DNA of 64,000 bases, from positions 640,001 to 704,000 of the forward strand of contig CBDBOV010000003.1 in the NCBI GenBank assembly GCA_965208575.1. Reading direction: 5' to 3'. Positions 2,212-30,884 of this stretch are shown here, one piece after another. Both the position numbers and the translations under genes were made by a program. Origin of the DNA: Spirochaetia bacterium. Its GTDB lineage: Bacteria > Spirochaetota > Spirochaetia > SZUA-6 > Bin103. The notes below the pieces were generated by a model, which was given only the letters and a program-made list of their open reading frames with translations, did no database searches and was not told where the DNA came from. Within the stretch, counting starts at the first letter, position 1; each line of letters begins with the position of its first letter.

Positions 2212-3981
2212 CTAGCCGCCCATTTCCCTCTTCAGCGCCTGATCGATCCAGAGGCGGGCATAGACGGCGTTCTTGTTCCAGACCCCCATGTAGAAGTCAC
2301 CGTCGAAGCCCTGCAGCCACGGCTGGGTGACGTTGAACCATGGATTCAGGCCTCCCCACATGACGATGTGGTTCTTGACGAGCCAGAAGTCTGCCTCTCT
2401 GCCGAGCCGCTGATACTCCTCCGCGGTGGCAGCCACTCTCAGTTGCTCGATCAGTGCGTCGTACTCCGGGTCACTCAGTCCGGCGATGTTATTGTCGGCG
2501 CCGGATTCAGTGTGGGGCAGCATAATGAGCGGGCGATATGGGGTCCCCTGACTCCAGGTGCTGATGCCGTCATAGTCGCCCTTGCCACCCCCGGCGTTGG
2601 CCCGAATCGTAGGCCAGTCCATTTGCCGGATCTCAACCTCGACCCCGATCTCGGCAAGGTAGCCTTGGACGATCTCACGATGCCCGACACTGGTGGGGTT
2701 GGCGATGATGTCGCTGATCGTGAATCGGACGCCGTCGGCGCCGCGCGGATACCCGGCCTCGTCGAGGAGCTTCTCGGCAGCTTCCGGGTCGTACCGGTAG
2801 TACTGCCTGACCTCCTCGGGCCACTCCGCATACGGGATCGCAAATCCGGTGAACGGCTGTAACGAGCCCATGGGTTCGGGCCGCATCCAACCCTTGTAGT
2901 AGGTGTTGTTGATCGTTTCGAGGTCGACCGCCATCTGTATGGCGTGGCGCACGCGGATGTCGTCGAAGGGAGGCTTGGTCACGTTGAAGGCAGCGCTCTC
3001 CCCGGCCCGAAAATAGTACGCGTTCACCCTCAGCTCTGGGTTGGTCCGCTGCAGGCTGTCGATCGGGTCCACCGTAAAGAACTGACCGTGGCCGTTGTGC
3101 GCAAGGTAGTCGATCTGGCCGGTGCGCATGGCCGATACGCGCGTCGCCTGGTCTGGCATGATCAGTCTGACCAGCTCGTCGACGTAGGGCAGGCGGTTAT
3201 CGGGGTATTTCTCGTCGTGGCCCCAGTAGTCGGGGTTCTTGACCCAGGTGATGGAGCTGCCGTCGACCCAGTCCGTCAGCATGAAGGGACCGGTACCGAC
3301 CAGGTTCCGCCAGTCGGCGACGTCGCCGTGCTGCTCGATCGCCTCGGGGGCGTTTACGAACCCGATATTGTCGTCGATCAGCACCAACAGCGCATCAAGG
3401 GGTGGATCTACCAGCTTGACCTCGACCGTATATCTGTCGGTGGCGGTGACCGATTCCCATGACATCGCGGGGTATCGGGTGTTCTGGTCGCTGGTGCGCC
3501 AGCGCGCGATGTTGTACACCACGTCCTCGGCGGTCAGCTCGCGACCGTTCATCGGTGCCTTGTCATGCCAGCGAACGCCCTGGCGGATGTGGAAGATATA
3601 GGTCGTCGGATCGGGGATGTCCCAGCTTTCGGCCAGAGCCGGGGCAAATTGGTCTTCGAGCAGGAACTCGTTGGCGAGATTGTTCACGCTCCGGTCGATT
3701 CCCCAGTTCGCGATGCCGAGCTTCTCGACCACGCCGCTGGCTGCGGATCCCGCCCCTATGCCACCGATCATCGCGTCGGAATTCGGCGGCTCCCACGAGG
3801 CGCCGTAGGTCAGCGTCCCACCATACTCCGGCGCCGTGTACACCTTGCCGTTGGTGGGGTCGGTGACGTACCTCTTCTCGGCGGCGGCTGCCGCGCCGGC
3901 GCTGTCGCTCTCGCCGGCGGCGAACGAAACGGTGGCCGCCAGCGCGAACGCCAGTGCCATCGATACGAATCTGGAAACCAT
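2212..3981 (-). CDS. Family-5 (Opp/Dpp/Nik-type) ABC substrate-binding protein, paralogue SBP1 (589 aa)
   Basis: RBS AGAGGAGG before ATG; signal peptide; motifs PEYGGTL, LAESW, FHIRQGVRWH, GTGPF, KPPFDDIRVR. Confidence 0.92.
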   Translation of the reverse strand: MVSRFVSMALAFALAATVSFAAGESDSAGAAAAAEKRYVTDPTNGKVYTAPEYGGTLTYGASWEPPNSDAMIGGIGAGSAASGVVEKLGIANWGIDRSVNNLANEFLLEDQFAPALAESWDIPDPTTYIFHIRQGVRWHDKAPMNGRELTAEDVVYNIARWRTSDQNTRYPAMSWESVTATDRYTVEVKLVDPPLDALLVLIDDNIGFVNAPEAIEQHGDVADWRNLVGTGPFMLTDWVDGSSITWVKNPDYWGHDEKYPDNRLPYVDELVRLIMPDQATRVSAMRTGQIDYLAHNGHGQFFTVDPIDSLQRTNPELRVNAYYFRAGESAAFNVTKPPFDDIRVRHAIQMAVDLETINNTYYKGWMRPEPMGSLQPFTGFAIPYAEWPEEVRQYYRYDPEAAEKLLDEAGYPRGADGVRFTISDIIANPTSVGHREIVQGYLAEIGVEVEIRQMDWPTIRANAGGGKGDYDGISTWSQGTPYRPLIMLPHTESGADNNIAGLSDPEYDALIEQLRVAATAEEYQRLGREADFWLVKNHIVMWGGLNPWFNVTQPWLQGFDGDFYMGVWNKNAVYARLWIDQALKREMGG

Positions 3982-4222
3982 GCTGGTTCCTCCTCTCGGG
4001 TCGCCATGCGGCGACCTGCTTGTGCGCTTGCTGCCGGCAACGCCGGCCGGTGTGGCTGGTGGATGGGGGAGATGAAAGAGATGCGGGTGGCTGGCCGAGG
4101 CAGTGAAACGGTGGATGTGCGGACGTATGGCCGCCGCCGCTACGCTGATCGACGGTGCCGCGGTCAGCACCACCCCGCGCGCTCGGTCGTCGCGTGCTTG
4201 GCTCGGGCAGTTAGCGGCGCGC

Positions 4223-4238
4223 GGTAGTCGGGTAGTCG
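4223..4238. repeat. (GGTAGTCG)x2 in the SBP1 leader
   Basis: Read directly; same unit as at 9656 and 22311. Confidence 0.8.
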
Positions 4239-4278
4239 GCGGGTGGGCTGGGTCATGTCGTCACCCATTACCCGTGCC

Positions 4279-4307
4279 AGTATAGACGGCCCGCCCGGGT
4301 AGTGCAA
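4279..4307 (-). promoter_or_regulatory. sigma70 promoter of SBP1
   Basis: Minus strand TTGCAC-17 bp-TATACT, conserved upstream of all four paralogues. Confidence 0.8.
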
Positions 4308-4329
4308 TGACAGGCGTGTAGCCGCGAGC

Positions 4330-4358: not shown

Positions 4359-4366
4359 AGAATACA

Positions 4367-5136: not shown

Positions 5137-5387
5137 GGCACGTAGGCTACCTCGGCCCGTCCGAGTTGTCGGATTGGCGGGTTAGCGGCAGTTCCGACAG
5201 GACTCCGTACGGTAGGCGGGGCTGGGCCGAAAGCGACGCCGAGAGGCGGCGGTTTCGGGGCCCTGACCCGAGGGCTAACCGGCGAGCAGACGCTGCATCA
5301 ACTCCGGCAGATTCAGGAATCGTGTACTGGTCCCGCCATAGTCGCGGACGTAGGATCTTTCGGTGTCGGCGGTCACGACGAAGTTGG

Positions 5388-5476
5388 CACTCATAGCGGA
5401 TTCTCGGATCGAGGAACCCATACGTCAGGTCGATGAGCACGTTCCCCACCACGACGAAGCTGCCAAACAGCAGGTT
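5388..5476 (-). pseudogene. C-terminal scrap of DppB permease
   Basis: NLLFGSFVVVGNVLIDLTYGFLDPRIRYE; nucleotide match to 27751-27839. Confidence 0.85.
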
Positions 5477-5497
5477 CTTCCGGCCCAACCGGCCTGC

Positions 5498-5530: not shown

Positions 5531-7604
5531 CGTGAGTTTCCTAGTTATTTCGGGTGGCTGGTAGTTTGAGTGGATAAGTCATTTTAGGATAGCAAGTTAC
5601 TCGCTATCCTGTCGGACGGGGCTTGTATACACTGACCGTGGTGCTGTCAGGGATGGGCGTGTCGGTATACGTCAAGTAGGCGGCACAGTTTGTCTTGCAG
5701 GGACGACCGTTCAGAGAGCACGTATTGAGCCCGGTAGCGCCCTCTGGTGGCCGGCTCAGGCGCGGCGTAGAGGTTGACCACTTCGGTCACGCCGCTGAGT
5801 TCCGTCAGTAGTTGCTCGATGGTAAGGAGTTGTCCGCCGTCGGCCGCCTTGCGTTGCAGCAGCGAACTCAGCAGCAGTGCCAACACACAATAGAACACGT
5901 GTACGCGCAGCTTCTGATCGGTCCAGTGGAAGGTCGGCGAGAAGCTCACCCAGTGGGGATTCTTCATCTGCTTGAACGCCCGCTCCACGTGATGTTGAGC
6001 GCGGCTGGCCAAGATGATCTCCTGGTCGCTCCACGACTCGTTGTCGGTGCACAGGATGCGTTTGCCCAAGCGCCGGCGTTGCAAGCGCTGGTACGCTGCC
6101 CAATCGGTGCGAAATCGAAAACTGAGCACGCCGTCGGATTCGCTGATCTGAACCTTGAGAATCTGCTTTACGTACTGACCCGAGGTGATCGTGTCGAAAT
6201 GCTTCTGCAAGGATGCTCTGCTGTAGCCTTTGCCCTTTGCTCCCGGTAGCTGGCTGCGCGCCAGCTTGCTGCGCAAGGCGCGCAACGCAGCGCGCTTCTT
6301 GCGCAACGCGTGGTTGATCCCAGCCAGCTGCCCGTCCAGCAACCGGCGACTGTTGGTGACCACCACGGTGCGGCGCTCACCCCAGATCACCTTGTCGCTG
6401 CGGTAAGCGGTCACCCCGGCCAGCCGTGGGTCAGTGAAGGAGTGAAACCTGCCGGCGGGAACCGCCAGCAGATCCTCGTGCTGAGTCACGGTCAAGGAGG
6501 TGACGAAATGGTATGGGCCGGCTTGCAGCGCCTCGATATTCGCTCTCGAGGTGTTGCCGCCATCGAACACCAGCGTGACATCTTCGCAGTCCTGGGCCAA
6601 CTGCTTGCAGCGGCTGATCAGCGTCTCGATCAAGCTCGAGAACATCGCGGCGTCATTCTGATTTCCCGGATACGGGTGTGAGAGCAGCGGAATGTGGTAG
6701 TCGCAGCTTACCAGGAGTGCCAAGCCCAGGATCCGCAGATCGGCGCGTTTGCTTTTCGCGTGGCCACGTTGTGCCAGTGCACTGACGGTGCGACTGTCGA
6801 TGAACGTATCGAAGTTGGTCGCATCGAAGATGAGCGGTCGCAGATCGATCCGGTAGTGGTCGATCACCCGCTGCGCCAGTTGTTGCTCAATCGCGCCGAT
6901 GGCAGCGCTGTCGAGCATGTTCATGTGATCCCAGAATCGCTGACTGGCGAGCGAGCGCTGTGCAGCGGGGAGCAGCCGATTCAACACCGTGCGTCGATAC
7001 CACTGGTACAGAGAAGCCTTGCTGGAGGCGGCCACACAACGGTTCAGCGCCGCCACCAGCAGATACTGTCCGCAGGACAGTCCTTGGTCTCGCTTGGGGA
7101 CCTGGGTATCGATAAGGCCCACCACATCCAACTCTTGGGCGATCTGCCAGAGCGCGGCCAACGCACCGAACTGAATGACCTTCGCCTTTGCCGGTCGGGT
7201 GGGAGCCTCACGGAGGCGCTGGAGCAACTTCTCTGCGCTGCCGAGATGTTCGAGGACGATGGGACGTGGTTTGCCGTTGACGCGTCTGGACTCGACGATC
7301 TGCCAGTAGGTGTGCCCGCGGGAGACCTTTTTCTGGAGGGTGGCCACTGCAATCAGTGTATACACTTAGTACGGAGACAGTCAAGGAGAACCGGCATGAG
7401 TGGGTCGGAAGGATCGAAGAGGGGATACTTCGAGTAGTATTGAGGAAGCTGTCCGGCACGGCGCTCGATATATTCAGTGTATACACTGATCCTCTCAAGA
7501 GGAGAGTCCACTTCCGTGAACCTATCTTGTTTCATGGTAACAACTTATCTGGATGAACCAGAGAATCCCGCGGTCAAATCAACGGGATAAGTAGGAAGGT
7601 CAGG
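5531..7604 (-). mobile_element. IS1634-family insertion sequence
   Basis: Imperfect 22-bp terminal inverted repeats (CGTGAGTTTCCTAGTTATTTCG vs CCTGACCTTCCTACTTATCCCG, 16/22). CTAG direct repeats at 5527-5530 and 7605-7608. Confidence 0.75.
5647..7347 (-). CDS. IS1634-family DDE transposase
   Basis: KKVSRGHTYWQIVESRRVNGKPR N-terminus; FDATNF, GHAKSKRADLR, VFDGG, VERAFKQMK, HVFYCVLAL. Start GTG 7347 (alternative 7365). Confidence 0.88.
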   Translation of the reverse strand: MATLQKKVSRGHTYWQIVESRRVNGKPRPIVLEHLGSAEKLLQRLREAPTRPAKAKVIQFGALAALWQIAQELDVVGLIDTQVPKRDQGLSCGQYLLVAALNRCVAASSKASLYQWYRRTVLNRLLPAAQRSLASQRFWDHMNMLDSAAIGAIEQQLAQRVIDHYRIDLRPLIFDATNFDTFIDSRTVSALAQRGHAKSKRADLRILGLALLVSCDYHIPLLSHPYPGNQNDAAMFSSLIETLISRCKQLAQDCEDVTLVFDGGNTSRANIEALQAGPYHFVTSLTVTQHEDLLAVPAGRFHSFTDPRLAGVTAYRSDKVIWGERRTVVVTNSRRLLDGQLAGINHALRKKRAALRALRSKLARSQLPGAKGKGYSRASLQKHFDTITSGQYVKQILKVQISESDGVLSFRFRTDWAAYQRLQRRRLGKRILCTDNESWSDQEIILASRAQHHVERAFKQMKNPHWVSFSPTFHWTDQKLRVHVFYCVLALLLSSLLQRKAADGGQLLTIEQLLTELSGVTEVVNLYAAPEPATRGRYRAQYVLSERSSLQDKLCRLLDVYRHAHP

Positions 7605-7634: not shown

Positions 7635-9404
7635 CTAGCCGCCCATTTCCCTCTTTAGCGCCTGATCGATCCAGAGGCGGGCATAGACGGCGTTCTTGTT
7701 CCGGGTCCCCATGTAGAAGTCACCGTCGAAACCCTGCAGCCACGGCTGGGTGACGTTGAACCATGGATTCAGGCCTCCCCACATGAAGATGTGGTTCTTG
7801 ACGAGCCAGAAATCTGCCTCTCTCGCGAGCCGCTGATACTCCTCCGCGGTGGCAGCCACTTTCAGTGCCTCGAACAGCGCGTCGTACTCCGGGTCACTGA
7901 GTCCTGGGGCGTTGTTCGGGTGGCCCGACGACGTGGCGTTCAGAATTACCAGAGGGCGATACGGGACGCCCTGACCCCAGGTGGTGATGCCGTCATACTC
8001 GCCCTTGCCACCCTTGAAGTTGGCGCTCATCGTAGACCAGTCCTGTTGCCGGATCTCGACCTGGACCCCGATCTTGGCAAGGTAGCCCTGGACGATCTCA
8101 TGATGCCCGATGCTCTGGGGGTTGCTAAAGATGTCGCTGATCGTGAATCGGATGCCGTCGGCGCCGCGCGGATACCCGGCCTCGTCGAGGAGCTTCTCGG
8201 CAGCTTCCGGGTCGTACCGGTAGTACTGCCTGACCTCCTCGGGCCACTCAGCAAACGGAATCGCAAATCCGGTGGCGGGCTGTTGCGTCCCCATGGGTTC
8301 GGGCCGCATCCAACCCTTGTAGTAGGTAGTGTTGATGGATTCGAGGTCGACCGCCATCTGTATTGCGTGGCGCACGCGGATGTCGTCGAAGGGTGGCTTG
8401 GTCACGTTGAAGGCAGCGCTCTCCCCCGCCCGAAAATAGTACGCGTTCACCCTCAGCTCGGGGTTGCTCCGCTGCAGGCTGTCGATCGGGTCCACCGTCT
8501 GAAAGTATCCGTCGCTGTTGTGACCAAGGTAGTCGATCTGGCCAGTACGCATGGCCGAGATGCGTGTCGCTTGGTCAGGCATGATCAGTCTGACCAGCTC
8601 GTCGATGTAGGGCAGGCGGTTCTCGGGGTACTTCTCGTCGTGGCCCCAGTAGTCGGGATTCTTGACCCAGGTGATGGCGCTGCCGTCGACCCAGTCCGTC
8701 AACATGAAGGGACCGGTACCGACCAGGTTCCTCCAGTCGGCGACGTCGCCGTGCTGCTCGATCACCTCAGGGGCGTTTACGAACCCCAAACCGTCCTCGA
8801 TCAGCACCAACAGCGCATCGAGGGGTGGATCGACCAGCTTGACCTCGACCGTGTATCTGTCGGTGGCGGTGACCGATTCCCATGTCATCGCGGGGTATCG
8901 GGTGTTCTTGTCGCTGGTGCGCCAGCGCGCGATGTTGTACACCACGTCCTCGGCCGTGAGCTCGCGGCCGTTCATCGGTGCCTTGTTGTGCCAGCGAACG
9001 CCCTGACGGATGTGGAAGATATAGGTCGTCGGATTGGGGATGTCCCAGCTTTCGGCCAGAGCCCCGGTAAAGTGGTCGGCGAGCAGGATTTCGTTCGCGA
9101 GGTCGTTCACGCTCCGATCTATGCCCCAGTTGGCGATGCCGAGCTTCTCGACCACGCCGCTGGCGGCAGCTCCTGCGGTGATACCACCGACAATCGCGTC
9201 GGAGTTCGGAGGCTCCGAACTGGAGCCGTAGGTCAACGTCCCACCATACTCCGGCGCCGTGTACACCTTGCCGTTGGTGGGGTCGGTGACGTACTTCTTG
9301 TCGGCGGCGGCTGCCGCGCCGGCGCTGTCGCTTTCGCCGGCGGCGAACGAAACGGTGGCCGCCAGCGCGAACGCCAGTGCCATCGATACGAATCTGGAAA
9401 CCAT
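7635..9404 (-). CDS. Family-5 ABC SBP, paralogue SBP2 (589 aa)
   Basis: Same RBS, length and motifs as SBP1. Confidence 0.92.
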   Translation of the reverse strand: MVSRFVSMALAFALAATVSFAAGESDSAGAAAAADKKYVTDPTNGKVYTAPEYGGTLTYGSSSEPPNSDAIVGGITAGAAASGVVEKLGIANWGIDRSVNDLANEILLADHFTGALAESWDIPNPTTYIFHIRQGVRWHNKAPMNGRELTAEDVVYNIARWRTSDKNTRYPAMTWESVTATDRYTVEVKLVDPPLDALLVLIEDGLGFVNAPEVIEQHGDVADWRNLVGTGPFMLTDWVDGSAITWVKNPDYWGHDEKYPENRLPYIDELVRLIMPDQATRISAMRTGQIDYLGHNSDGYFQTVDPIDSLQRSNPELRVNAYYFRAGESAAFNVTKPPFDDIRVRHAIQMAVDLESINTTYYKGWMRPEPMGTQQPATGFAIPFAEWPEEVRQYYRYDPEAAEKLLDEAGYPRGADGIRFTISDIFSNPQSIGHHEIVQGYLAKIGVQVEIRQQDWSTMSANFKGGKGEYDGITTWGQGVPYRPLVILNATSSGHPNNAPGLSDPEYDALFEALKVAATAEEYQRLAREADFWLVKNHIFMWGGLNPWFNVTQPWLQGFDGDFYMGTRNKNAVYARLWIDQALKREMGG

Positions 9405-9655
9405 AGTGGTTCCTCCTCTCGGGTCACCATGGGGCGACCCACTTGTGCGCTTGTTGCCGGCAACGCCGGCCGGTGTGGCGGGTGGATTGGGGAGATGAAA
9501 GAGATGCGGGTCGCTGGCCGAGGCAGTGGAACGGTGGATGCGCGGACCTGTGGCCGCCGCCGCTCGGCGGATCGATGGTACCGCGGTCAACACCGCGCCG
9601 CGCACTCGGCCGTCGCGTGGTTGGCTCGGGCAGTTAGTTATAGTTAGCGGCGCGC

Positions 9656-9711
9656 GGTAGTCGGGTAGTCGGGTAGTCGGGTAGTCGGGTAGTCGGGTAG
9701 TCGGGTAGTCG
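9656..9711. repeat. (GGTAGTCG)x7 VNTR in the SBP2 leader
   Basis: Seven perfect 8-bp units, read directly. Confidence 0.95.
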
Positions 9712-9743
9712 AGCGTACCATGTCGTTACCCATTACCCGTGCC

Positions 9744-9772
9744 AGTATAGACGGCCCGCCCGGGTAGTGCAA
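9744..9772 (-). promoter_or_regulatory. sigma70 promoter of SBP2
   Basis: TTGCAC-17-TATACT. Confidence 0.8.
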
Positions 9773-9956
9773 GGACAATCGCATCTACCGCCATCCACCG
9801 CCCCGTCGCCTGGGCTTCCGGAGCCATGTGGGCGACGACGTTGCCGTGGCTGGCGCCGGAGAAGCGCGTCGGTGATGAGGGCGACGCCGGCGATCATGCC
9901 GCTGGACCGCTCGGACCGCTCCGTTGCCCCGCCGGGTTCCGTGCTATTATGCCGCT

Positions 9957-12765: not shown

Positions 12766-13031
12766 TGCGTCCAACGGCGGCACCCGCTGCGCGAACTCAT
12801 CTCGCGGCGCTCCATCACCAACCGGAGGAGCGGCGCAATCTGCGGATCGGCCTCCTGATCAGAGAGCTCCGCCTCGAGAAAGGCATGACGCAGGACCAGC
12901 TCGCGCGGGAGATTCGCACCACCAAGAGTGCAATCTCCAGACTCGAGAATCACTCCGAGAGCATTACGCTTGCGACGCTCGAGAAGGTGGCCCACGCGCT
13001 CGGGAAAGTGGTCCACATCGAGCTGTCATAA
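12762..13031 (+). CDS. XRE-family HTH protein (orphan antitoxin-like; N-terminus probably scrambled)
   Basis: IRELRLEKGMTQDQLAREIRTTKSAISRLEN...TLEKVAHALGK. Confidence 0.75.
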   Translation: MMRPTAAPAARTHLAALHHQPEERRNLRIGLLIRELRLEKGMTQDQLAREIRTTKSAISRLENHSESITLATLEKVAHALGKVVHIELS

Positions 13032-16144: not shown

Positions 16145-16154
16145 GCTGACGGCC

Positions 16155-17029: not shown

Positions 17030-17271
17030 GCGGTAACCTCTGCGCTGATCTCGTGTGAGTCAGCCTCGAAAGCCTTGTGAACGCCGGCGCCTTCGCCGTC
17101 CAAACAGGCGCGCGTGCACGTCGGCATGCGTGGGCACGCCTGCTCTCTTCCTACGACTAAGTCCACGAAACCGACACGAAGAAACACGAAGGAATCCCAG
17201 GAGGGAACACCGTAGACGTAGGGTGGGCGTGTCTACCCCTCTTCGTTAGACTGCGAGGCCAGCAGAATCCA

Positions 17272-18453: not shown

Positions 18454-18631
18454 CTCGGACGTTTTGACGACCTGCTCCGCACGGTGCGGCGGGATGAAGA
18501 TGACACCATCATCTGGAAAGGAGATACTATTGATCGCTAATATACCTGCTTCAGGTATAGGACCTATCGGGCATACGCCCTTATTAATTGGAGGAAACAA
18601 TGCCACTGCGGGAGAATAAGTTAAAGCAAAG

Positions 18632-19053
18632 TTGAAAAGAGGTGAGGTTATCATCGAAACATTGACGAAGAGCCGCGGACCATACGTGGCGGAGGCTTTT
18701 GCAAAGGCCGGTGTGGACTACTTGGATATGGACGCTGAGCATACAAATTTTGACATGAAAGAGCTAGTGGAGACCGTCCATTATGCTCATCTGGCTGGGG
18801 TATCACACCTATGGTACGCCTTCCTGCCTTGGAGCAACATTTCATCACTAGATTGCTGGATAACGGTTGTCAATGTCTGATCCTACCAAGTATCAGGACC
18901 GGAGCGGAAGCCCGGCGGTTCATAGAGTTTGCCAAGTTCCACCCGGAAGGAAAGCGTGCGTTTGGCATGTACGGGGTACGTGATTTACCGGCAGCGTGCG
19001 CTCAGTTCGGATTTATGGTTTCTGGAGCGTGCAGCGCGAAATGCGGTCGATGA
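18632..19053 (+). pseudogene. HpcH/HpaI aldolase, frameshifted and truncated (copy 2)
   Basis: Split into ORFs 18632-18880 and 18811-19053 by a G-run (GCTGGGGTATC vs GCTGGTATC in copy 1). Confidence 0.75.
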
Positions 19054-19093
19054 GATCGCAGCTTGGCGCGATCGATGAGGTGAGTGAGCACCG

Positions 19094-20062: not shown

Positions 20063-20298
20063 CCTTCTCTGCTTCCTTATGTGATCGTCCTCCATGTAAG
20101 GAACAAATGTCAACCCCGCAGTACGCTTTTTCGAACGATTATGCGCACCGTCAACTGAAGCTCGTACGCTCTCATGGCAGATACCTGGCTGTGATCACGC
20201 GGCGTGCGGAGATGAGAGGGGAGCCGGGATAGCGGTCGGCCCTGCAGGCCGACTATCCCCCGACTCCCCTAAGTCACGATTGACTAGCGATAACTGAG

Positions 20299-22068: not shown

Positions 22069-22310
22069 GCTGGTTCCTCCTCTCGGGTCGCCATGGGGTG
22101 ACCCACTTGTGCGCTTGTTGCCGGCAACGCCGGCCGGTGTGGCTGGTGGATGAGGGAGATGCGGGTGGCTGGCCGAGGCAGTGGAACGGTGGATGTGCGG
22201 ACCTATGGCCGCCGCCGCTCGGCGGATCGATGGTGCCGCGGTCAACACCGCGCCGCGCACTCGGCCGTCGCGTGGTTGGCTCGGGCAGTTAGTTATAGTT
22301 AGCGGCGCGC

Positions 22311-22339
22311 GGTAGTCGGGTAGTCGGGTAGTCGGGTAG
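22311..22339. repeat. (GGTAGTCG)x3 + GGTAG in the SBP3 leader
   Basis: Read directly. Confidence 0.9.
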
Positions 22340-22367
22340 GGTCATGTCGCCACCCATTACCCGTGCG

Positions 22368-22396
22368 AGTATAGACGGCCCGCCCGGGTAGTGCAA
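22368..22396 (-). promoter_or_regulatory. sigma70 promoter of SBP3
   Basis: TTGCAC-17-TATACT. Confidence 0.8.
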
Positions 22397-22580
22397 GGAC
22401 ACGCATCTACCGCAATCTACTGCCCCCGTCGCCTGGGCTTCCGGAGCCATGTGGGCGAACGACGTTGCCGTGGCTGGCGCCGGAGAAGCGCGTCGGTGAT
22501 GAGGGCGACGCCGGCGATCATGCCGCTGGACCGCTCGGACCGCTCCGTTGCCCCGGCGGGTTCCGTGCTACTATGCTACG

Positions 22581-25374
22581 GTGATGCAGACTGCGGCGGT
22601 CAGGGCTCGTCCGTTGCTCGCCGGCGCCGCCGCCAAGCGTCGCGGGCGTCCCGTTGCTGCTCGTCATCCTGGTGCCGTTCGCGGCGCTGAACCGGCTCCC
22701 CAAGCTGGATACGGTGCGCGAGGACCTGCGCGCCGCGCTCGCCCCCACCGCGCAGTGTTTTCAGGGGTTCTGCATCGAGGATCCCGAGCGGGCGGGCGAA
22801 CGGAGTGGCTTCTTCGACCGTTGGTGGCGATTCTCCGTGACCTACCTGCAGCTCGTTGCCGTCGGGATGTTGTTTGCGTTTGCCGCCGCCGCCATTGCCG
22901 AGGCGTTCCTGGTCTCCGACCTGTCGGTGCGTGCAGGCCCCGCTACCGCGGCCGCTGGACGCGGGCGTTGGCGGCGCATCCTGAAGGGCGTCGGTCTCGG
23001 CCCCGTGCTCAACCTCTGCTCGGCATGCGTCGCTCCGGTGTCCAGCACGCTGCGCCGCGGCGGCATGGGAGTGGAGGGCGCGCTCGCCCTGGTGCACGGA
23101 TCGGCCACCCTGAACGTGCCGTCGCTGCTGATGATCGCCGTGGTGTTCACCCCGCTGCTCGGTGCAAGCCGGCTCGTTCTCGGGCTGGTCGCAGCGTTCT
23201 CGCTGGGGCCCCTGGTCGCGTGGGCGGTGCGGCGGCGCGGCGCGCGCCTCGACCACTGCGCGGGCGCCGAGCTCGCCTGTGCGGTGCCGGCCGTGGCAGC
23301 GGAGACGGCGACCTGGTCGGAGGTGCTGCGCACCGGCGGCGCGGCATGGCTGCGCTCGTTCGCCCGCCTGGTGCGGCGCATGTTGCCGCTCATGATCGTG
23401 GCCGGCTTCGCCAGCGGCGCGGCGATCCAGGCGTTGCAGCCAGAGACCGTTACCGCCTACCTCGGCGACAGCCTGCTGGGGGTGGTAATCGCGGCGACGC
23501 TCGGGGTGCTGATCAACGTGCCGCTGCTGTTCGAGATCCCGCTGGTCGCGCTGCTGCTGATCCTCGGCGCCGGTACGGCGCCGGCGGCGGCCCTGCTGTT
23601 CGCCGCCGCCGCCGCCGGGCCGGTTACCTTCCTCGCGCTTGCCAAGGCCCTCGGGCGCCGCGGCGTCGCCGTCTACGCGGGCGGCACCTGGGCGATCGCC
23701 GTGCTCGGGGGATGCGCGGTGCTGCTGGTGGGGGCGCTGCTGGGGCCGGAGCGGGCGGCGCTGCGACTCGACGGTGGTCCGGCTACGGACGCCACCGGCC
23801 ACGTCGGCGCCGTGCCCAACGCCATCGTGCTGGCCACCTGCGCCGGTGAGCCGGCGCCGTGCCCGGAGCAGAGCGGACTCCGTTGGCCGCACACGCCCAC
23901 CATCCATGGGCACTCGGTGACCAGTGCCGGGGGCGCCGTCGGCGACTTCGACCGGGACGGTTGGCAGGACCTGTTCGTGCCGTCGGGCGGCACCTCGCCC
24001 GACCGGCTGTACATGAACAACGGCGACGGCACGTTCACGGACCGCGCCGCCGAGGCCGGAATCGCGGCCCGCCATCACGGCTACGGCGCGGCCGTCGGCG
24101 ACGTGGACGGCGATGGCTGGCTCGACATCTTCGTCATCAGCTACGGCAGCGTGGACCAGCGCTTCACCATGCCCGGCAACCACCGCCTGTACCGCAACAA
24201 CGGCGACGGCACGTTCACCGACATCGCCGCCCGCGCGGGGGTGGCGACCACCAGCCTCAAGCAGCCGACCGGCACCGGGGCCAGCTTCGGCGACTACGAC
24301 CTCGACGGCGACCTGGACCTGGCCGTGGCCTCGTGGTTCTACGGCGAGGGGGGCAACGCGCTGTTCCGGAACAACGGCGACGGGACGTTCGAGAACGTGA
24401 CCTCACTGCTGCCATTCGGTGGCAAGCGTGCCCCGATGGGGTATACGCCGCTGTTCGCCGACATGGACGGCGACCGCTATCCCGAGTTGCTGTGGGCCGC
24501 CGACTACTTCACCAGCAGCTACCTGCGCAACGACGGCGGTGGCGGCTTCACCGACATCACCGCGCAATCCGGGACCGGGCTGGACGCCAACGGCATGGGC
24601 GCAGCGGCAGCCGATCTCGACAACGACGGCAGGCTCGACTGGTTCGTGACCTCGATCAGCACACGGTATGCGGTCGACAAGGCGCCGGGTACCGGGAACT
24701 TCCTGTACCGCAACCAGGGCGGCCATCGCTACGAGTCGGTCGGCGACCGCGCGGGGGTCAAGGAGGGCGGCTGGGGATGGGGTGCCGTCGCGGTGGACCT
24801 GGACCACGACGGCTGGCTCGACCTGGTGCAGACCAACGGCTGGGAGGGGCCCAACGGCCGCGACGATCCCGAGTGGGCGTCCGAGACGACCAGGGTGTTC
24901 CGCAACCTCACCGCCGCCTCGTCTGAACTGACCTTCGCCGACGTCGCCGAACAAGCGGGCCTCGTGCACCGCGGGCAGGGCCGGGGAGTGGTTCACCTCG
25001 ACTATGACAATGACGGCGACCAGGACCTGGTCATCTTCAACAACGCGGAACTACCCACGCTGGTGCGCAACGAACTCGACGCGGGCAGCGACGGCGCCGG
25101 GCGCTGGCTGCGCGTGTTTCTGGACACGGCAGCGCGTGCGGATCTGGCGCCCGACGGGTTCGGCAGCCTGGTCGCGGTGCGCGCCGGCGATCTTCGCCAG
25201 GTGCGCTACGTCGGCGCGGCGGCCGGCTACCTCGGCCCGTCCGAGCTGTCGGCCCACTTCGGTCTCGGCGCCGCGCCGGTGGTGGACGAGTTGCAGGTGC
25301 ACTGGGCCGACGGCAGCACCTCCACCTACCACCAGGTGCCCACCAACCGCACACTCACCATCACGGCCCGTTGA
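22581..25374 (+). CDS. Permease-FG-GAP-ASPIC/UnbV fusion, copy B
   Basis: Near-identical to copy A. Main ORF is 22654-25374. The likely start GTG 22581 (after TG-c-TACTAT) is out of frame. Confidence 0.8.
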
Positions 25375-25440
25375 TGCGTCCAACGGCGGCACCCGCTGCG
25401 CGAACTCATCTCGCGGCGTTCCATCACCAACCGACAAACA

Positions 25441-25504
25441 ACTAACCGCTCCGGCTGATCGCCCGGTACGTGACCCGCGCACGCCGTCGCCTTCACCACC
25501 GCCG
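25441..25504. repeat. Dispersed ~65-bp repeat (second copy at 57560-57624)
   Basis: TAACCG.TCCGGCTGATCGCCCGGTACG.GACCC(C)GCGCACGCCGTCGCCTTCACCACCGCCG. Confidence 0.85.
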
Positions 25505-25552
25505 AGGCGATCCGCTCGGACCAGCGCGTGTGCACCACACCGGTGTTCGCGG

Positions 25553-25870
25553 TTAGAGCCGGCTTTTCCAGTAACCAGGCTTGCGACGATCGTGGGCGAC
25601 AGCGAGCACTCGGATCGTGGCTTCGGTCTCGTGGTTGATGTAGACGACATGGTACGGGAAGCGCTTGACAGGTGCGCGCCGCACACGCAGTTCGGCAGGC
25701 ACTCGAGGCACGAACACACCTGCACGTGGGAAGCGAACGATATGGGCCAGGGTGGCGTCTACCGTGTCGAGGAACTCGGTGCCCAATCCGGCTCGCTGGT
25801 CGTCGTACCAGCGGGCGGCAGCGCGGTATTCCTGTTCTGCCTCGTCTTCAAACCGGATGGCGCGGGTCAC
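25553..25870 (-). CDS. RelE/ParE-family toxin
   Basis: AEQEYRAAARWYDDQRAGLGTEF...RFPYHVVY...VLAVAHDRRKPGYW. Confidence 0.9.
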   Translation of the reverse strand: MTRAIRFEDEAEQEYRAAARWYDDQRAGLGTEFLDTVDATLAHIVRFPRAGVFVPRVPAELRVRRAPVKRFPYHVVYINHETEATIRVLAVAHDRRKPGYWKSRL

Positions 25871-26109
25871 CGCCGACGCAACTCGTCTTCGGCTCGCCGT
25901 CTCACATCTTCCCAGGGAGTCCCAGCTGATTGGCCGGAGAGAATCCGCCGGGCCCGCCGCTCGATTTCAGCGGCCCAGGCTGTCTCGACATCCTGCATGT
26001 CGCTTTCGGCCTCGTCCAGGCTGACGAGCAATTCGGCAGCCACATCGGCGCGTTCTTCGGCAGGCAGCGTCAGGGCTTCGCGGAGAAGCTGTTGCGTACG
26101 AGAGGTCAT
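25867..26109 (-). CDS. Addiction-module antitoxin
   Basis: EALTLPAEERADVAAELLVSLD...AWAAEIERR...PWEDV; GTGA overlap with the toxin. Confidence 0.88.
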   Translation of the reverse strand: MTSRTQQLLREALTLPAEERADVAAELLVSLDEAESDMQDVETAWAAEIERRARRILSGQSAGTPWEDVRRRAEDELRRR

Positions 26110-26197
26110 AGCGGCATTCTAACCGCGGTGAGGCAGGCCACCAAGTCGGTCACCCAGGCGCTTTGATCTGGTGGGGGCTTTGCGGGCGGTGCCAGCT

Positions 26198-26521
26198 CTA
26201 CGTCAGTCCGAGCTGGACTCGCAAGGCTCGTTCGACGGAGTCCATGTCCTGGCCTGTCAGGATGCCGAGCCGCCTGGTCAGCCGATGCTTGGCAGTGGTC
26301 GTGATCTGATCGGCCATGGCCTTCTGTCGTCGGCTGCCAACATGTACCAGAGCCTCGCTCGGATACACTCTGCGAGTAGCTGATGTCAGCGGCACGACCT
26401 GCACGCGATTGAGATGCCGATTCGCTGCGTCGTTGCTTACGATGACCGCAGGGCGTCGCTTTCGGACTTCGCCTCCCTGGCCCGATTCAAACGAAACCCA
26501 CCACACCTCACCGCGGGTCAT
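26198..26521 (-). CDS. MazF/PemK-family toxin
   Basis: RGEVWWVSF...GGEVRKRRPAVIVSND...VVPLTS...ADQI. Confidence 0.92.
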   Translation of the reverse strand: MTRGEVWWVSFESGQGGEVRKRRPAVIVSNDAANRHLNRVQVVPLTSATRRVYPSEALVHVGSRRQKAMADQITTTAKHRLTRRLGILTGQDMDSVERALRVQLGLT

Positions 26522-26738
26522 CTTTCACGTCGCCCAGGAGAGCCTCCGACCACTCCTCGGCGTCCCGCTCCCGGTTCTCGTCGCGGGCCATCTCCTCATA
26601 GACCGGATCAAGATCGGCGTCGACCACATGCGGGCGTACGATCTCTTCTATGAACCGAGCGATCTTTCTGGGCCCTACCTTTCTGTACAGACCTTCGTAG
26701 ACGGCTTCGTCAATCGTGATGGTGAGCTTCCGCTGCAT
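26508..26738 (-). CDS. Antitoxin of the MazF module
   Basis: MQRKLTITIDEAVYEGLY...YEEMARDENRERDAEEWSE. Overlaps the toxin; an upstream palindrome TTACACGTGTAA (26753-26764) could be the operator. Confidence 0.8.
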   Translation of the reverse strand: MQRKLTITIDEAVYEGLYRKVGPRKIARFIEEIVRPHVVDADLDPVYEEMARDENRERDAEEWSEALLGDVKDDPR

Positions 26739-26821
26739 GAGTAACACGTATATTACACGTGTAACAGCACAGTCAAGCTCGATGGCTCCGCGACAGAGAG
26801 CTCCGGCCAGAGCCTATCTAC

Positions 26822-27757
26822 CTACGCTCTTTTCGCCGGCTCGCGGCCCAGGCGGCCGCCGCCGCCCCGCAGGCGCGGGTCGAGCAGGTCGCGCACCGCG
26901 TCGCCGAACATGTTCAGGCTGTAGACCAGCACGGTCAGGAAGATGCCGGGCCAGAACGCCAGCCACGGCGCCTGCTCCATGTACTCGCGGCCTTCGCGGC
27001 TCAGCATACCACCCCAACTGGGAACCTCCAGTGGCAGACCGAAGCCGAGAAAGCTCAAGCTGGCCTCACTGATGATCACCGCACCGATGTTGATGCTGAA
27101 CACGATGATCACGGGAGCGACGATGTTGGGCACCACGTGCCACACGAGCGTCCTCCATCGCGAGGACCCGATCGCCTCGGCCGCCTGAAAGTACGCGTTC
27201 TCCTTGATCGCGATTACGGCGCTTCTGACCACCCGCGAGCCGCCGATGCCGCCGGTAACGCCAAGGACCACGATGGTCTGCACCAGCCCCTGCCCGACGA
27301 TGGACATGATGGTCAACAGGATCAGCAGTCCGGGTATCGACACCCAGGCGTCGACGAATCGTTGGGTCGCCAGGTCCACGTTACCGCCAACGAATCCGGA
27401 GGCACCGCCGACCACCATGGCGACCACGACGTTGAGGGCGGTCGCGGCCAGGCCAACGGTCAGCGAAACACGGGCGCCGTAGATCAGGCGGGTCAGCAGG
27501 TCGCGTCCGACATGATCGGTGCCGAGCAGGAAGCGCGCCGAGGGGCCGCTGAGCCGATCGGCCAGGCTCATCTCCAGCATTCCGTAGGGAGCCAGCACGT
27601 CGGCGAAGATGGCGGTCAGCGCGAACAGCACGATGATGATCCCGCTGGCGGTTCCCAGCGGTTTCTCCTTCCACAGCCGGGCGAAGAAGTAGGCGGCGCC
27701 GGCGCGGGTCTTCGGCTCGCTGGGCTCGCTCACCGCGGTGGTCTGTCTGTCACTCAT
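26822..27757 (-). CDS. ABC transporter permease, DppC/OppC-like
   Basis: LGTDHVGRDL, EAA loop (YFQAAEAIGSS), LSFLGFG, WGGML, GDAVRDLLDP. Confidence 0.92.
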   Translation of the reverse strand: MSDRQTTAVSEPSEPKTRAGAAYFFARLWKEKPLGTASGIIIVLFALTAIFADVLAPYGMLEMSLADRLSGPSARFLLGTDHVGRDLLTRLIYGARVSLTVGLAATALNVVVAMVVGGASGFVGGNVDLATQRFVDAWVSIPGLLILLTIMSIVGQGLVQTIVVLGVTGGIGGSRVVRSAVIAIKENAYFQAAEAIGSSRWRTLVWHVVPNIVAPVIIVFSINIGAVIISEASLSFLGFGLPLEVPSWGGMLSREGREYMEQAPWLAFWPGIFLTVLVYSLNMFGDAVRDLLDPRLRGGGGRLGREPAKRA

Positions 27758-28706
27758 AGCGGATTCTCGGATCGAGGAACCCATACGTCAGGTCGATGAG
27801 CACGTTCCCCACCACGACGAAGCTGCCAAACAGCAGGTTGATTCCCGACACCACCGTGTAGTCTCGGTCTTCGAGCGCATTCAGCATCAGACGACCCAGC
27901 CCAGGCAGATTGAAGATGTTCTCCATGATGACCGAGCCGCCCACCAGGATGGGCAGCTGCAAGCCCACCAGCGTGATCACCGGGATGATGGCGTTCTTGA
28001 CCGCGTGCCGCACGACCACCGCCCGCTCCTTCAGCCCCTTGGACCAGGCGGTGCGGACATAGTCCTGCCGTAGCACCTCCAGCATCATGGTGCGTGTCAT
28101 CCGCATGGTGGCCGCGGCCATCGCCGTTCCCAGGATGGCGCCGGGAATGAGGAACATCCCCAGGTTCCCCAGCGGGTCGGCGCTGAACCGGATGAGCCGC
28201 ATCGGCGGTGACCAGCCCCACCAGATTGCCGGGTAGAGCATGACCATCAACGCCAGCCAGAAGTTGGGCGTTGCCAGGCCGACGACGGCAACCGAGCGTC
28301 CCACGTAGTCGGGGGTGGTATCCTGGCGGATCGCCGAGTAGATGCCCACCGGCAGGGCGATCAGCAGCCCGATCACCAGCGCCGTCACGCCGAGCTGAAT
28401 CGTCACCGGCAACCTGCCCGCTATCTTCTCGTTTACGGAGAAGCGGCCGAGCAGGGATTGACCCAGGCTCCCGTGCAGCACGATGTCGCCCAGCCAGCGC
28501 GCGTACTGCACGGGAATGGGCTGGTCCAAGCCGAGCTTGCGCTCGAGAGCTTCGCGGTCGATCTCGCCGGCGGTGAAGGCGAAGTCGGCCTGCATGGCGT
28601 CGATGACATCGCCGGGGATGAACCGGACCAGCAGAAAGACGATCATGCTCAGGATCAGGAGCGTAGGGACGACCAGCAGCACCCTTCTGATGACGTACGC
28701 TCTCAT
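27750..28706 (-). CDS. ABC transporter permease, DppB/OppB-like
   Basis: RFIPGD, LGLDQP, QDYVRTAWSKGL, FNLPGLG, LDPRIRY. Confidence 0.93.
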   Translation of the reverse strand: MRAYVIRRVLLVVPTLLILSMIVFLLVRFIPGDVIDAMQADFAFTAGEIDREALERKLGLDQPIPVQYARWLGDIVLHGSLGQSLLGRFSVNEKIAGRLPVTIQLGVTALVIGLLIALPVGIYSAIRQDTTPDYVGRSVAVVGLATPNFWLALMVMLYPAIWWGWSPPMRLIRFSADPLGNLGMFLIPGAILGTAMAAATMRMTRTMMLEVLRQDYVRTAWSKGLKERAVVVRHAVKNAIIPVITLVGLQLPILVGGSVIMENIFNLPGLGRLMLNALEDRDYTVVSGINLLFGSFVVVGNVLIDLTYGFLDPRIRYE

Positions 28707-28723
28707 GGCAGATACCTGGTTGT

Positions 28724-28763
28724 GAGGGAGCCGGGAAGCTTGCGCGAGGCTTCCGGCTCCCTC
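28724..28763 (-). terminator. Stem-loop between SBP4 and dppB
   Basis: GAGGGAGCCGGGAAGCTT...AGGCTTCCGGCTCCCTC. Confidence 0.6.
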
Positions 28764-28774
28764 ATATGGCGTAA

Positions 28775-30544
28775 CTAGCCGCCCATTTCTTTCTTCAGCG
28801 CCTGGTCGATCCAGAGGCGGGCATAGACGGCGTTCTTGTTCCAGACCCCCATGTAGAAGTCACCGTCGAAGCCCTGCAGCCACGGCTGGGTGACGTTGAA
28901 CCATGGATTCAGGCCTCCCCACATGAAGATGTGGTTCTCCACGAGCCAGTAATCTGCCTCTTTGCCGAGCCGCTGATATTCCTCCGCGGTGGCAGCCACT
29001 CTCAGTTGCTCGATCAGTGCGTCGTACTCCGGGTCACTGAGTCCGGGGACGTTATTGTCGGCGCCGGACGCCTTGTGGGGCAGAATAATGAGAGGGCGAT
29101 ATGGGGTTCCCTGACTCCAGTTGCCGATGCCGTCATACTCGCCCTTGCCACCCCGGAAGCTGGCCTGGAACGTAGGCCAGTCCATTTGCCGGATCTCGAC
29201 CTGGACCCCGATCTCGGCAAGGTAGCCCTGGACGATCTCACGATGCCCGATACTCGCGGGGTTGGCGATGATGTCGCTGATCGTGAATCGAATGCCGTCG
29301 GCGCCGCGCGGATACCCGGCCTCGTCGAGGAGCTTCTCGGCAGCTTCCGGGTCGTACCGGTAGTACTGCTTGACCTCCTCGGGCCACTCCGCATACGGAA
29401 TCGCAAATCCGGTGGCGGGCTGTATCGACCCCATGGGTTCGGGCCGCATCCAACCCTTGTAGTAGGTGTTGTTGATCGTTTCGAGGTCGACCGCCATCTG
29501 TATTGCGTGGCGCACGCGGATGTCGTCGAAGGGTGGCTTGGTCACGTTGAAGGCAGCGCTCTCCCCCGCCCGAAAATAGTACGCGTTCACCCTCAGTTCG
29601 GGGTTGGTCCGCTGCAGGCTGTCGATCGGGTCCACCGTGAAGAACTGACCGTGGCCGTTGTGCGCCAGGTAGTCGATCTGGCCGGTGCGCATGGCCGATA
29701 CGCGCGTCGCTTGGTCTGGCATGATCAGTCTGACCAACTCGTCGACGTAGGGCAGGCGGTTCTCGGGGTACTTCTCGTCGTGGCCCCAGTAGTCGGGATT
29801 CTTGACCCAGGTCATGGAGCTGCCGTCGACCCAGTCCGTCAGCATGAAGGGACCGGTACCGACCAGGTTCCGCCAGTCGGCGACGTCGCCGTGCTGCTCG
29901 ATCACCTCGGGGGCGTTTACGAACCCGATATTGTCGTCGATCAGCACCAACAGCGCATCGAGGGGTGGATCTACCAGCTTGACCTCGACCGTATATTTGT
30001 CGGTGGCGGTGACCGATTCCCATGACATCGCGGGGTATCGGGTGTTCTGGTCGCTGGTGCGCCAGCGCTCGATGTTGTACACCACGTCCTCGGCGGTCAG
30101 CTCGCGACCGTTCATCGGCGCCTTGTCGTGCCAGCGAACGCCCTGACGGATGTGGAAGATATAGGTCGAAGGGTCGGGGATGTCCCAGCTTTCGGCCAGA
30201 GCCGGGGCAAAATGGTCTTCGAGCAGGAACTCGTTGGCGAGATTGTTCACGCTCCGATCGATGCCCCAGTTGGCGATGCCGAGCTTCTCGACGACGCCGC
30301 TGGCGGCAGATCCTGCCCCGATACCACCGACCATCGCGTCGGAGTTCGGCGGCTCCCACGAGGCGCCGTAGGTCAGCGTCCCACCATACTCCGGCGCCGT
30401 GTACACGATGCCGTTGGTGGGATCGGTGACGTACTTCTTGTCGGCGGCGGCTGCCGCGCCGGCGCTCTCGCTCTCGCCGGCGGCGAACGAAACGGTGGCC
30501 GCCAGCGCGAACGCCAGTGCCATCGATACGAATCTGGAAACCAT
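28775..30544 (-). CDS. Family-5 ABC SBP, paralogue SBP4 (589 aa), the only copy with intact permeases
   Basis: Same RBS, length and motifs; followed by dppB-dppC. Confidence 0.92.
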   Translation of the reverse strand: MVSRFVSMALAFALAATVSFAAGESESAGAAAAADKKYVTDPTNGIVYTAPEYGGTLTYGASWEPPNSDAMVGGIGAGSAASGVVEKLGIANWGIDRSVNNLANEFLLEDHFAPALAESWDIPDPSTYIFHIRQGVRWHDKAPMNGRELTAEDVVYNIERWRTSDQNTRYPAMSWESVTATDKYTVEVKLVDPPLDALLVLIDDNIGFVNAPEVIEQHGDVADWRNLVGTGPFMLTDWVDGSSMTWVKNPDYWGHDEKYPENRLPYVDELVRLIMPDQATRVSAMRTGQIDYLAHNGHGQFFTVDPIDSLQRTNPELRVNAYYFRAGESAAFNVTKPPFDDIRVRHAIQMAVDLETINNTYYKGWMRPEPMGSIQPATGFAIPYAEWPEEVKQYYRYDPEAAEKLLDEAGYPRGADGIRFTISDIIANPASIGHREIVQGYLAEIGVQVEIRQMDWPTFQASFRGGKGEYDGIGNWSQGTPYRPLIILPHKASGADNNVPGLSDPEYDALIEQLRVAATAEEYQRLGKEADYWLVENHIFMWGGLNPWFNVTQPWLQGFDGDFYMGVWNKNAVYARLWIDQALKKEMGG

Positions 30545-30854
30545 ACTGGTTCCTCCTCTCGGGCCGCCATGCGGTGACCCACTTGTGCGCTTGCTGCCGG
30601 CAACGCCGGCCGGTGTGGCTGGTGGATGGGGGAGATGAAAGAGATGCGGGTGGCTGGCCGAGGCAGTGGAACGGTGGATGTGCGGACCTATGGCCGCCGC
30701 CGCTACGCTGATCGACGGTGCCGCGGTCAGCACCACGCCGCGCGCTCGGTCGTCGCGTGCTTGGCTCGGGCGCTTCGCTGTGCACAACTGTCCGGTTAGT
30801 GCGGACATCAGGCGGCGGCTGGGCTGGATCATGTCGTCACCCATTACCCATGCA

Positions 30855-30884
30855 AGTATAGACGGCCCGCTCGGGTCAGCGCAA
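30855..30884 (-). promoter_or_regulatory. sigma70 promoter of SBP4
   Basis: TTGCGC-18-TATACT. Confidence 0.7.

Follow-up and report, generated by a model that had tools for sequence, protein, structure and literature searches.

The DNA examined here, referred to as the window, is a stretch of 64,000 nucleotides from a Spirochaetia bacterium (assembly GCA_965208575.1, contig CBDBOV010000003.1, positions 640,001 to 704,000; G+C content ~65%), and it harbors four paralogous genes for family-5 substrate-binding proteins (SBPs), all on the minus strand: S1 (2212-3981), S2 (7635-9404), S3 (20299-22068) and S4 (28775-30544). Listing and translation of the open reading frames (ORFs) confirmed the positions and the common length of 1770 nt that had been assigned to them in an earlier interpretation made without database searches (the sequence-only reading). 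Each gene consists of 589 codons plus a stop and begins at one common ATG, the longer ORFs starting at GTG or ATG being read-through of a conserved leader. The four proteins align without gaps over all 589 residues, the ORFs being intact and free of indels, and share 84.7-93.7% amino acid identity (90.3-95.1% at the nucleotide level). S1 matches the Pfam family PF00496 (SBP_bac_5) with 252.6 bits against a cut-off of 32.4, and the other three copies are 85-94% identical to S1. The N-termini are hydrophobic (MVSRFVSMALAFALAATVSFAAG) with no lipobox cysteine discernible by eye, and residues 1-35 have a predicted local distance difference test score (pLDDT) below 50 in the structural model described below.

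Only S4 keeps a permease pair, in agreement with the sequence-only reading. An intact dppB/oppB-type gene (27750-28706, minus strand; Pfam BPD_transp_1 and BPD_transp_1_N, best NCBIfam matches being Opp/Nik B permeases, all below equivalog cut-offs) and an intact dppC/oppC-type gene (26822-27784, minus strand; Pfam BPD_transp_1 and OppC_N, no NCBIfam equivalog) follow S4 alone. Downstream of S1 there is a stump comprising the first 78 nt of dppB at 95% identity (2042-2119, minus strand), fused to a duplicated segment, block E (719-2043, minus strand), which contains a gene for an NAD-dependent epimerase/dehydratase (990-2009) and is 96.5-99% identical to 18706-20147 (gene 19094-20113) on the 3' side of S3. 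S3 carries a dppB stump at ~20148-20190 (minus strand) with the same junction to the epimerase block and a further deletion. On the 3' side of S2, homology stops ~30 nt after the stop codon, at an element of the IS1634 family (transposase gene 5647-7365, minus strand) located where permease genes would be expected. Beyond that transposase gene lies an isolated 92-nt remnant (5385-5476, minus strand) in which the terminal 89 nt of dppB, preserved at 100% identity, overlap with the initial 37 nt of dppC. The ORF at 5147-5488 was considered as a DppC fragment and rejected at the protein level, the 92-nt remnant being its only matching part.

On their upstream sides, S2 and S3 are flanked by a second duplicated segment, block F (9777-12824, plus strand), whose gene at 10099-12765 is divergent from S2 and encodes an ArsP_1-like permease region with FG-GAP and UnbV/ASPIC parts; it is 95-100% identical to 22413-25433, with the corresponding gene at 22654-25374 divergent from S3. 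Taking SBP gene and block F together, 7605-12824 matches 20269-25433 at 94.4% overall in a self-BLAST comparison. The upstream end of the S4 copy is abutted by an ISKra4-family transposase gene (30928-32334, minus strand). The sequence-only reading had described an array of self-contained cassettes that arose by duplication. Duplication is demonstrated by the self-BLAST blocks and by comparison with a single-copy locus in a related genome, but the description as an array has to be abandoned, the copies being dispersed over 28 kb among other genes and insertion sequence (IS) elements, within larger duplications of unequal extent and not in tandem; nor are the cassettes self-contained, since their boundaries are heterogeneous and include dppB stumps, an inserted IS and duplicated blocks of larger size.

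A scan for relatives of the locus, with one genome taken for each GTDB species, returned 46 loci, only two of which exceed 51% identity. One of them, L001, is from OZ242313.1 ('MAG: Spirochaetia bacterium', 5.0 Mb; 94% identity) and has a single SBP gene, after which come dppB, dppC, a short stretch and the FG-GAP gene; the locus is collinear with 22562-30769 of the window. Because L001 shows this order with a single SBP gene, S4-dppBC is taken as the ancestral locus (SBP-dppB-dppC-X-FG-GAP). The other, L002, is from OZ253572.1, a Spirochaetia metagenome-assembled genome (MAG) of 7.0 Mb, at 84% identity, and has the same gene order plus a 5'-truncated second SBP copy (ORF 13890-15188, 432 residues) and a further fragment, indicating that duplication of the SBP gene is recurrent and that some copies decay.

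A tree of 43 close proteins pairs each copy of the window with a protein of another assembly, S4 with the SBP of L001 (95% identity), S1 with P0005 (94.6%), S2 with P0038 (97.7% over 517 columns) and S3 with P0031, P0030 and P0026 (93.5-95.1%), the S2/S3 group branching before the split of L001 and S4. The paralogue types therefore predate this strain and occur elsewhere.

Alignment of the four proteins reproduced every variable motif listed in the sequence-only reading (ASW/SSS; GIGAGS/GITAGA/GISAGF; HNGHGQFF/HNSDGYFQ/HNSNGRFT; SL/TQ/EL/SI; DIIANP/DIFSNP/DNYRFP; the four decamers beginning with DW; GISTW/GITTW/GISYW/GIGNW), whereas the nearly invariant scaffold of which it spoke was an overstatement, since 116 of the 589 columns vary. 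For a comparison of sites, two pocket segments were fixed beforehand by alignment to Salmonella OppA (1b05), namely residues 420-435 and 455-480 (42 columns), which are homologous to OppA 360-373 and 396-420. Variation is strongly concentrated in these segments, with 23 of 42 columns variable against 93 of 547 elsewhere (Fisher p=1.4e-7). Likewise, 9 of the 15 mappable OppA binding residues, taken from the union of the lists in the excerpts of PMC9967938 and PMC6305025 used here, coincide with variable columns, the background being 97 of 455 (p=0.001); the residues from the PMC9967938 excerpt taken by themselves gave 6 of 11 (p=0.015), and with the residue mapping shifted by 1-3 residues 4-8 of 15 still fell on variable columns. 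A very variable loop at 486-500 includes the position aligned to OppA T438. The proposal that variation is concentrated at segments homologous to known ligand-contact loops is thus supported by both kinds of enrichment. S1 has a derived pocket type (IRANAG, GISTW), S2 has the type DIFSNP, MSANFK and GITTW, and S3 has the most diverged type (DNYRFP, MHPKIK, GISYW) with the longest pocket branch, while the second pocket segment of S4 is near that of the outgroup clade (FQASF, and GIGNW versus GMGNW).

Gene-wide pairwise dN/dS values range from 0.25 to 0.74. For most of the gene, pN/pS in sliding windows lies between 0.1 and 0.7; it rises to ~0.95 across codons 406-450 and, in pairs that are not independent of one another, to 1.5-1.8 across codons 436-480, and pS varies from 0 to 0.29 along the gene. 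A codon model fitted to six sequences gave an omega of 0.85 for the 42 pocket codons versus 0.287 for the rest (twice the log-likelihood difference, 2dlnL, =17.0). A dN/dS above 1 is thus not shown, the pocket value being indistinguishable from 1.

Across 41 close sequences the 42 pocket columns form 19 different strings, with 21 sequences of the sister clade sharing one identical string and the clade of the window comprising five or six discrete pocket types. Each of the window's pocket strings differs from those of its orthologues in other assemblies at 1-4 of the 42 columns, so that the term hypervariable, used in the sequence-only reading, does not fit a few discrete and conserved types. 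The ratio of differences inside to outside the pocket is 3.69 between paralogues and 1.35 within types; for example, S1-S4 and S4-L001 each differ by 4.9% outside the pocket, and inside it at 10 versus 3 of the 42 columns. This conservation within types sets the pattern apart from plain decay. These comparisons suggest that change was concentrated in a burst between types, after which constraint set in, and that hypervariation is not ongoing.

The incongruent sharing of short motifs, from which the sequence-only reading had proposed gene conversion, was reproduced in full: S1 and S4 share ASWEP and AHNGHGQ; S1 and S3 share AEKRY, QPFTG and GDYDG; S2 and S4 share ADKKY, QPATG and GEYDG; and S3 and S4 share TNGIV and PST. 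Among the informative sites of the four copies, 42 support the grouping (S1,S4)(S2,S3), 12 support (S1,S3)(S2,S4) and 11 support (S1,S2)(S3,S4). The pairwise homoplasy index (PHI) test, in our own implementation, gave p=0.044 for the four sequences and p=0.0005 for five or six, and the neighbour-similarity score (NSS) gave p=0.0005; restricted to purely synonymous columns, PHI gave p=0.14 (four sequences, 21 sites), 0.014 and 0.008. Run-length analysis indicated shared tracts between S2 and L001 at codons 481-495 (26 polymorphic sites, p=0.0008), S2 and S3 at 267-297 (p=0.0034) and S2 and S4 at 317-355 (p=0.007), these being p values per pair among 15 pairs, uncorrected.

The flanks of the genes carry a related signal. 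Block E is 99-100% identical between S1 and S3, whereas the S1 and S3 genes are 79-98% identical per 100 nt, and for S2 and S3 the identity of block F is 95-100%, reaching 100% over 1 kb, whereas the genes are 79.5-96% identical. Either the flanks were homogenised while the SBP cores resisted, or recombination brought diverged SBP alleles into blocks that had recently been duplicated, and both readings imply exchange between copies. Recombination or gene conversion among the copies is accordingly supported by PHI, NSS, the shared tracts and the contrast of flank with core. The designation as an amplify-and-shuffle system goes too far, as there is no dedicated machinery and the boundaries are heterogeneous.

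Upstream, the four genes and L001 have ~330 nt in common, including the ribosome-binding site (RBS; GAGAGGAGG). For S1 this region (3982-4310, minus strand) comprises a TTGCAC-17 nt-TATACT element, an 8-mer tandem repeat (4223-4239), a ~250-nt leader with two hairpins, and the RBS; equivalent regions on the minus strand, recognised by sequence conservation, are at ~9405-9789 (S2), 22069-22413 (S3) and 30545-30885 (S4). They differ by indels, namely the number of 8-mer repeats and a 9-nt deletion in S3. The 8-mer (GGTAGTCG on the plus strand) sits between the TATACT element and the leader, and repeat analysis gave 2.1 copies for S1, 7.0 for S2 (9656-9711), 3.6 for S3 (22311-22339), none 5' of S4 and ~14 for L001 (~9600-9720); this variable number might change the expression of each copy. 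Of the proposal that every copy has the same promoter, leader and RBS, the shared ~330 nt and the RBS stand, and the promoter is a putative one, recognised by its conservation, because a simple sigma-70 scan did not call the element, whose -35 hexamer matches at only 3 of 6 positions. Rfam returned no match in the whole window, and the conserved leader therefore belongs to no described RNA family; its consensus fold contains a compensatory change in 1 of 27 pairs (covariation term +0.48), which does not support a structured regulator.

Directly 3' of the SBP stop codon and before dppB there is also a G+C-rich inverted repeat without a T-run (~2130-2211 and ~28707-28774 in the window), kept in S1, S4, L001 and L002 and present as a variant in S3, which may be an intercistronic stem-loop raising the ratio of SBP to permease.

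An AF2 model of S4 (pLDDT 91.7, predicted TM-score 0.87) returned SBPs as all of the top 50 PDB matches listed by Foldseek, nearly all of them family-5 binders of peptides, nickel or opines. The best match was 5u4o (E 2.3e-37, target-normalised TM-score 0.82, 25% identity), followed by DppA, OppA, NikA and opine binders, no solved structure being close. NCBIfam scores are likewise below the equivalog cut-offs (DppA 104 bits versus 1005; OppA 90.6 versus 947; NikA 119.3 versus 393). E. coli DppA and Salmonella OppA thus share the Pfam family and the fold with the window protein (Foldseek E values of 6e-34 and 4e-32 to 1dpp and 1ola, target-normalised TM-scores 0.73-0.75), from which they differ in being only 19-25% identical, with anchor residues replaced. 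According to the excerpt of PMC12136057 used here, R383 and D436 of DppA (precursor numbering, equal to Arg355 and Asp408) bind, respectively, the carboxyl group and the amino group of the dipeptide, and according to that of PMC6305025, R413 and D419 of OppA bind the ligand's carboxylate and its alpha-amino group, respectively. The carboxylate-binding arginine is lacking in the window proteins, DppA R383 aligning to D424 and OppA R413 to G472, both invariant in the four copies. The amino-pairing aspartate (OppA D419, DppA D436) is lacking as well, the aligned residue being G479 (phmmer; invariant) or T/V480 (profile), with no acidic residue at 477-480 in any copy. Because these canonical anchors are absent, the ligand of S1-S4 is probably not an ordinary peptide.

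Based on these results we favor, as the probable explanation, that S1-S4 are lineage-specific paralogues of one periplasmic cluster-C SBP that were duplicated, stripped of their permease genes and diverged in the binding pocket, that recombine with one another and that probably serve one DppBC. The starting point would be the ancestral SBP-dppB-dppC-X-FG-GAP locus, represented by the present S4 locus, from which segmental duplications and rearrangements would have given three more copies, each keeping the upstream region, leader and RBS. The permease genes would then have been lost, in S1 and S3 by deletion leaving a dppB stump and in S2 by an IS-associated loss. The copies would have diverged mainly in the loops that line the ligand cleft in homologues, giving discrete and later conserved types of binding site, a case of neofunctionalisation, while homologous recombination or gene conversion would homogenise the flanks and parts of the scaffold and occasionally swap short tracts. 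Of this course of events, the segmental duplication of an SBP-dppBC locus, the disappearance of the permease genes from three copies, the divergence into conserved types at particular sites and the exchange among copies are shown by the data above. The orphan SBPs would supply the single intact DppBC-type permease, energised by ATPases whose genes lie elsewhere, with ligands that differ but are related. That the orphans still use DppBC, feeding one membrane complex as the sequence-only reading had suggested, is a reasonable inference given their descent from its own SBP and their retention of 85-94% of the sequence; differences in ligand, docking to DppBC and co-regulation are likewise predictions.

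Several observations weigh against this explanation. No gene for an ATP-binding cassette (ABC) ATPase was found among the 42 ORFs scanned in the window (1-64000) or the 15 scanned in L001 (1-21767), for either of the two permease pairs in the window, and the transporter is therefore incomplete as seen, so that the energising subunits are presumably encoded elsewhere. The genome of L001 has a single copy of this SBP clade. The recombination signal is modest when the four window copies are taken alone, both for PHI over all sites and for its synonymous columns. The pocket omega of 0.85 cannot be distinguished from 1 (2dlnL=0.35) and could result from relaxed constraint alone, and significance of the pN/pS peak is not shown. 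Most of the variable columns (93 of 116) are outside the two mapped segments. The hidden Markov model alignments to solved structures, both single-sequence and profile, cover residues 108-570 only and leave the variable N-lobe segments 61-79 and 373-380 outside the mapping; they are at ~20% identity, and the two alignments are one residue apart around 476-480. The location in the pocket is thus a homology inference for part of the variation only.

Systems in which several or orphan SBPs use one ABC translocator are well established, such as HisJ/ArgT with HisQMP and AmiA/AliA/AliB with AmiCDEF, and a review titled 'Homes for the orphans' reportedly deals with orphan or multiple SBPs that use one translocator. 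The window resembles these systems in having SBP genes without permease genes of their own and a related complete operon nearby, and differs from them in that the orphan state is traceable directly to deletion and IS events. That gene conversion makes bacterial paralogues evolve in concert, while selection preserves islands of divergence, is also well known as a general process, and the near-identical flanks around diverged cores, the range of pS from 0 to 0.29 and the significant PHI and tract tests resemble it. The locus is a young and clean instance of a kind of system already known, combining several SBPs per ABC importer with gene conversion among paralogues, and no new kind of mechanism. 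Among the matches listed in a literature search on orphan SBPs, paralogues and gene conversion, none concerned such an SBP family, which does not imply that none has been published.

Of the systems described so far, the Opp system of Borrelia burgdorferi is the closest, which in the excerpt of PMC7822543 used here consists of OppA1-5, one primary OppB1C1 permease and OppDF, with pockets that differ between paralogues and a multiplicity read as widening or partitioning the ligand repertoire. The window is alike in combining four intact paralogous SBP genes with one intact dppBC of the same lineage and with binding sites that differ, here as judged by homology. It differs in that its copies have one shared upstream region, as opposed to the separate regulation in Borrelia; in that they are 85-94% alike in amino acid sequence, which we call much closer, the Borrelia paralogues not having been compared with one another; in that they are without the peptide-anchoring Arg and Asp and without adjacent ATPase genes among the ORFs scanned; and in showing stumps of lost permease genes together with a recombination signal. 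The proteins are also distant, the window protein matching Borrelia OppAIV (4gl8) at E 2e-14 and a PDB entry named OppA3 (9pv8) at E 2e-13.

It is conceivable that the extra copies are redundant and decaying by-products of IS-driven rearrangement whose differences reflect relaxed constraint on orphans. The region is rich in transposase genes and gene fragments, L002 has its truncated second copy, a second transporter in the window looks damaged, and besides the pocket value indistinguishable from 1, the omega of 0.287 outside the pocket segments is rather high by bacterial standards. Nevertheless, four ORFs that are intact, without an indel over 589 codons and with RBS and upstream region kept, would not be expected of decaying genes, and the near-unchanged recurrence of the pocket types in other assemblies (within-type ratio 1.35) implies constraint after divergence, which makes decay unlikely in our estimation. 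The orphans could instead be specialised and serve another permease, for example that at 59956-61898 or one encoded outside the window, or act as sensory or chemotactic receptors. Such a role would fit with the presence of a second permease pair in the window, with the lack of an ATPase gene beside either pair among the ORFs scanned, and with the position of S1 and S3, which are now upstream of an epimerase gene on the same strand. We nonetheless consider it quite unlikely, given that S1-S3 descend from an S4-type gene, S1 and S3 still carrying the stumps of its dppB, that their scaffold is 85-94% identical to S4 while the SBP accompanying the second pair (SBP5) is only 42% identical, and that the dppB gene of that pair (dppB2) appears frameshifted.

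An assembly artefact, in which strain haplotypes of one locus were stitched into one contig, deserves mention since every relative is a metagenome-assembled genome, only one copy is present in the closest representative genome, and an assembler could be misled by flanks that are 100% identical over 0.8-1 kb, as at 1170-1970 and 11402-12401. However, shared flanks would be expected of alleles of one locus, whereas each copy here has its own junctions (dppB stumps with the epimerase block, the IS1634-family element, the divergent FG-GAP gene). Moreover, other assemblies contain proteins of the S1, S2 and S3 types, each at 94-98% identity, which speaks against a co-assembly of haplotypes, and L002 independently has a second, truncated copy at the same locus; the artefact is thus very improbable. 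We reject a dedicated diversification machine, such as a diversity-generating retroelement or integron-like cassettes, as the source of the variable segments. The likeness is superficial and consists in repeated units that bear a promoter and vary locally. The scan of 42 ORFs in the window revealed neither a reverse transcriptase nor an integron integrase, for retroelements by domain only and with no specific search for template and variable repeats, and the rve and DDE matches are IS transposases; furthermore, the copy boundaries are heterogeneous instead of site-specific, the variation consists of a few discrete conserved types, and Rfam has no match in the window.

The preferred explanation of paralogues sharing one DppBC could be extended to a receptor family with a homogenised scaffold and diversified pockets, although we regard this extension as speculative and rather doubtful. 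Gene conversion would match the docking scaffold and the leader to the one DppBC, selection would keep and exchange binding-loop modules to give combinatorial specificities, the 8-mer repeat (0 to ~14 copies) might tune expression, and non-peptide compounds from a host-associated or marine niche would serve as ligands. An example of an exchanged module would be codons 481-495, at which S2 is identical to the orthologue of S4 in L001. Should the four proteins bind different ligands, the locus would be an unusually young and readable case of an ABC importer gaining substrates, with 30 kb of sequence displaying the ancestral copy and the derived ones, the scars of deletion and the tracts that were exchanged, and it would suggest that an uncharacterised branch of family-5 SBPs in uncultured Spirochaetia handles a class of non-peptide ligands. 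The differences are few (37-90 residues), which makes loop swapping feasible.

The distant system mentioned above, SBP5 with its own permease pair, is located at 57841-61898 (plus strand). The pair looks damaged (59956-60929, 62025-62421), the first 38 residues of dppB2 being in another frame with a break near 60069-60108, and extra dppC-like gene fragments are present 3' of its dppC2. The gene next to the SBP locus has an unusual architecture, with an ArsP_1-like region (46-58 bits, cut-off 32.3), FG-GAP repeats and a C-terminal UnbV/ASPIC domain in one long ORF, and it is found beside the SBP locus in all three genomes (at 10099-12765 and 22654-25374 in the window, 15501-18458 on the minus strand of L001 and 16316-20248 on the minus strand of L002). 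A stand-alone ORF of 154 residues (16565-17029) with the UnbV/ASPIC domain only is probably a further fragment of an FG-GAP/ASPIC gene left by rearrangement. Toxin-antitoxin or defence-like genes are scattered over the window (16035-16550, 26198-26521, 37322-40236), including a PIN-domain ORF, a MazF-like ORF between dppC and the FG-GAP gene, and AAA_21/AAA_15 (AbiEii-like) and AAA_14/DUF4143 ORFs. Lastly, three unlike transposase genes follow one another in 30928-35649, namely the ISKra4-family gene, an rve integrase-core ORF and a Transposase_29 ORF, the last of which is flanked by a 68-nt repeat pair (33890-33957 and 35862-35929).

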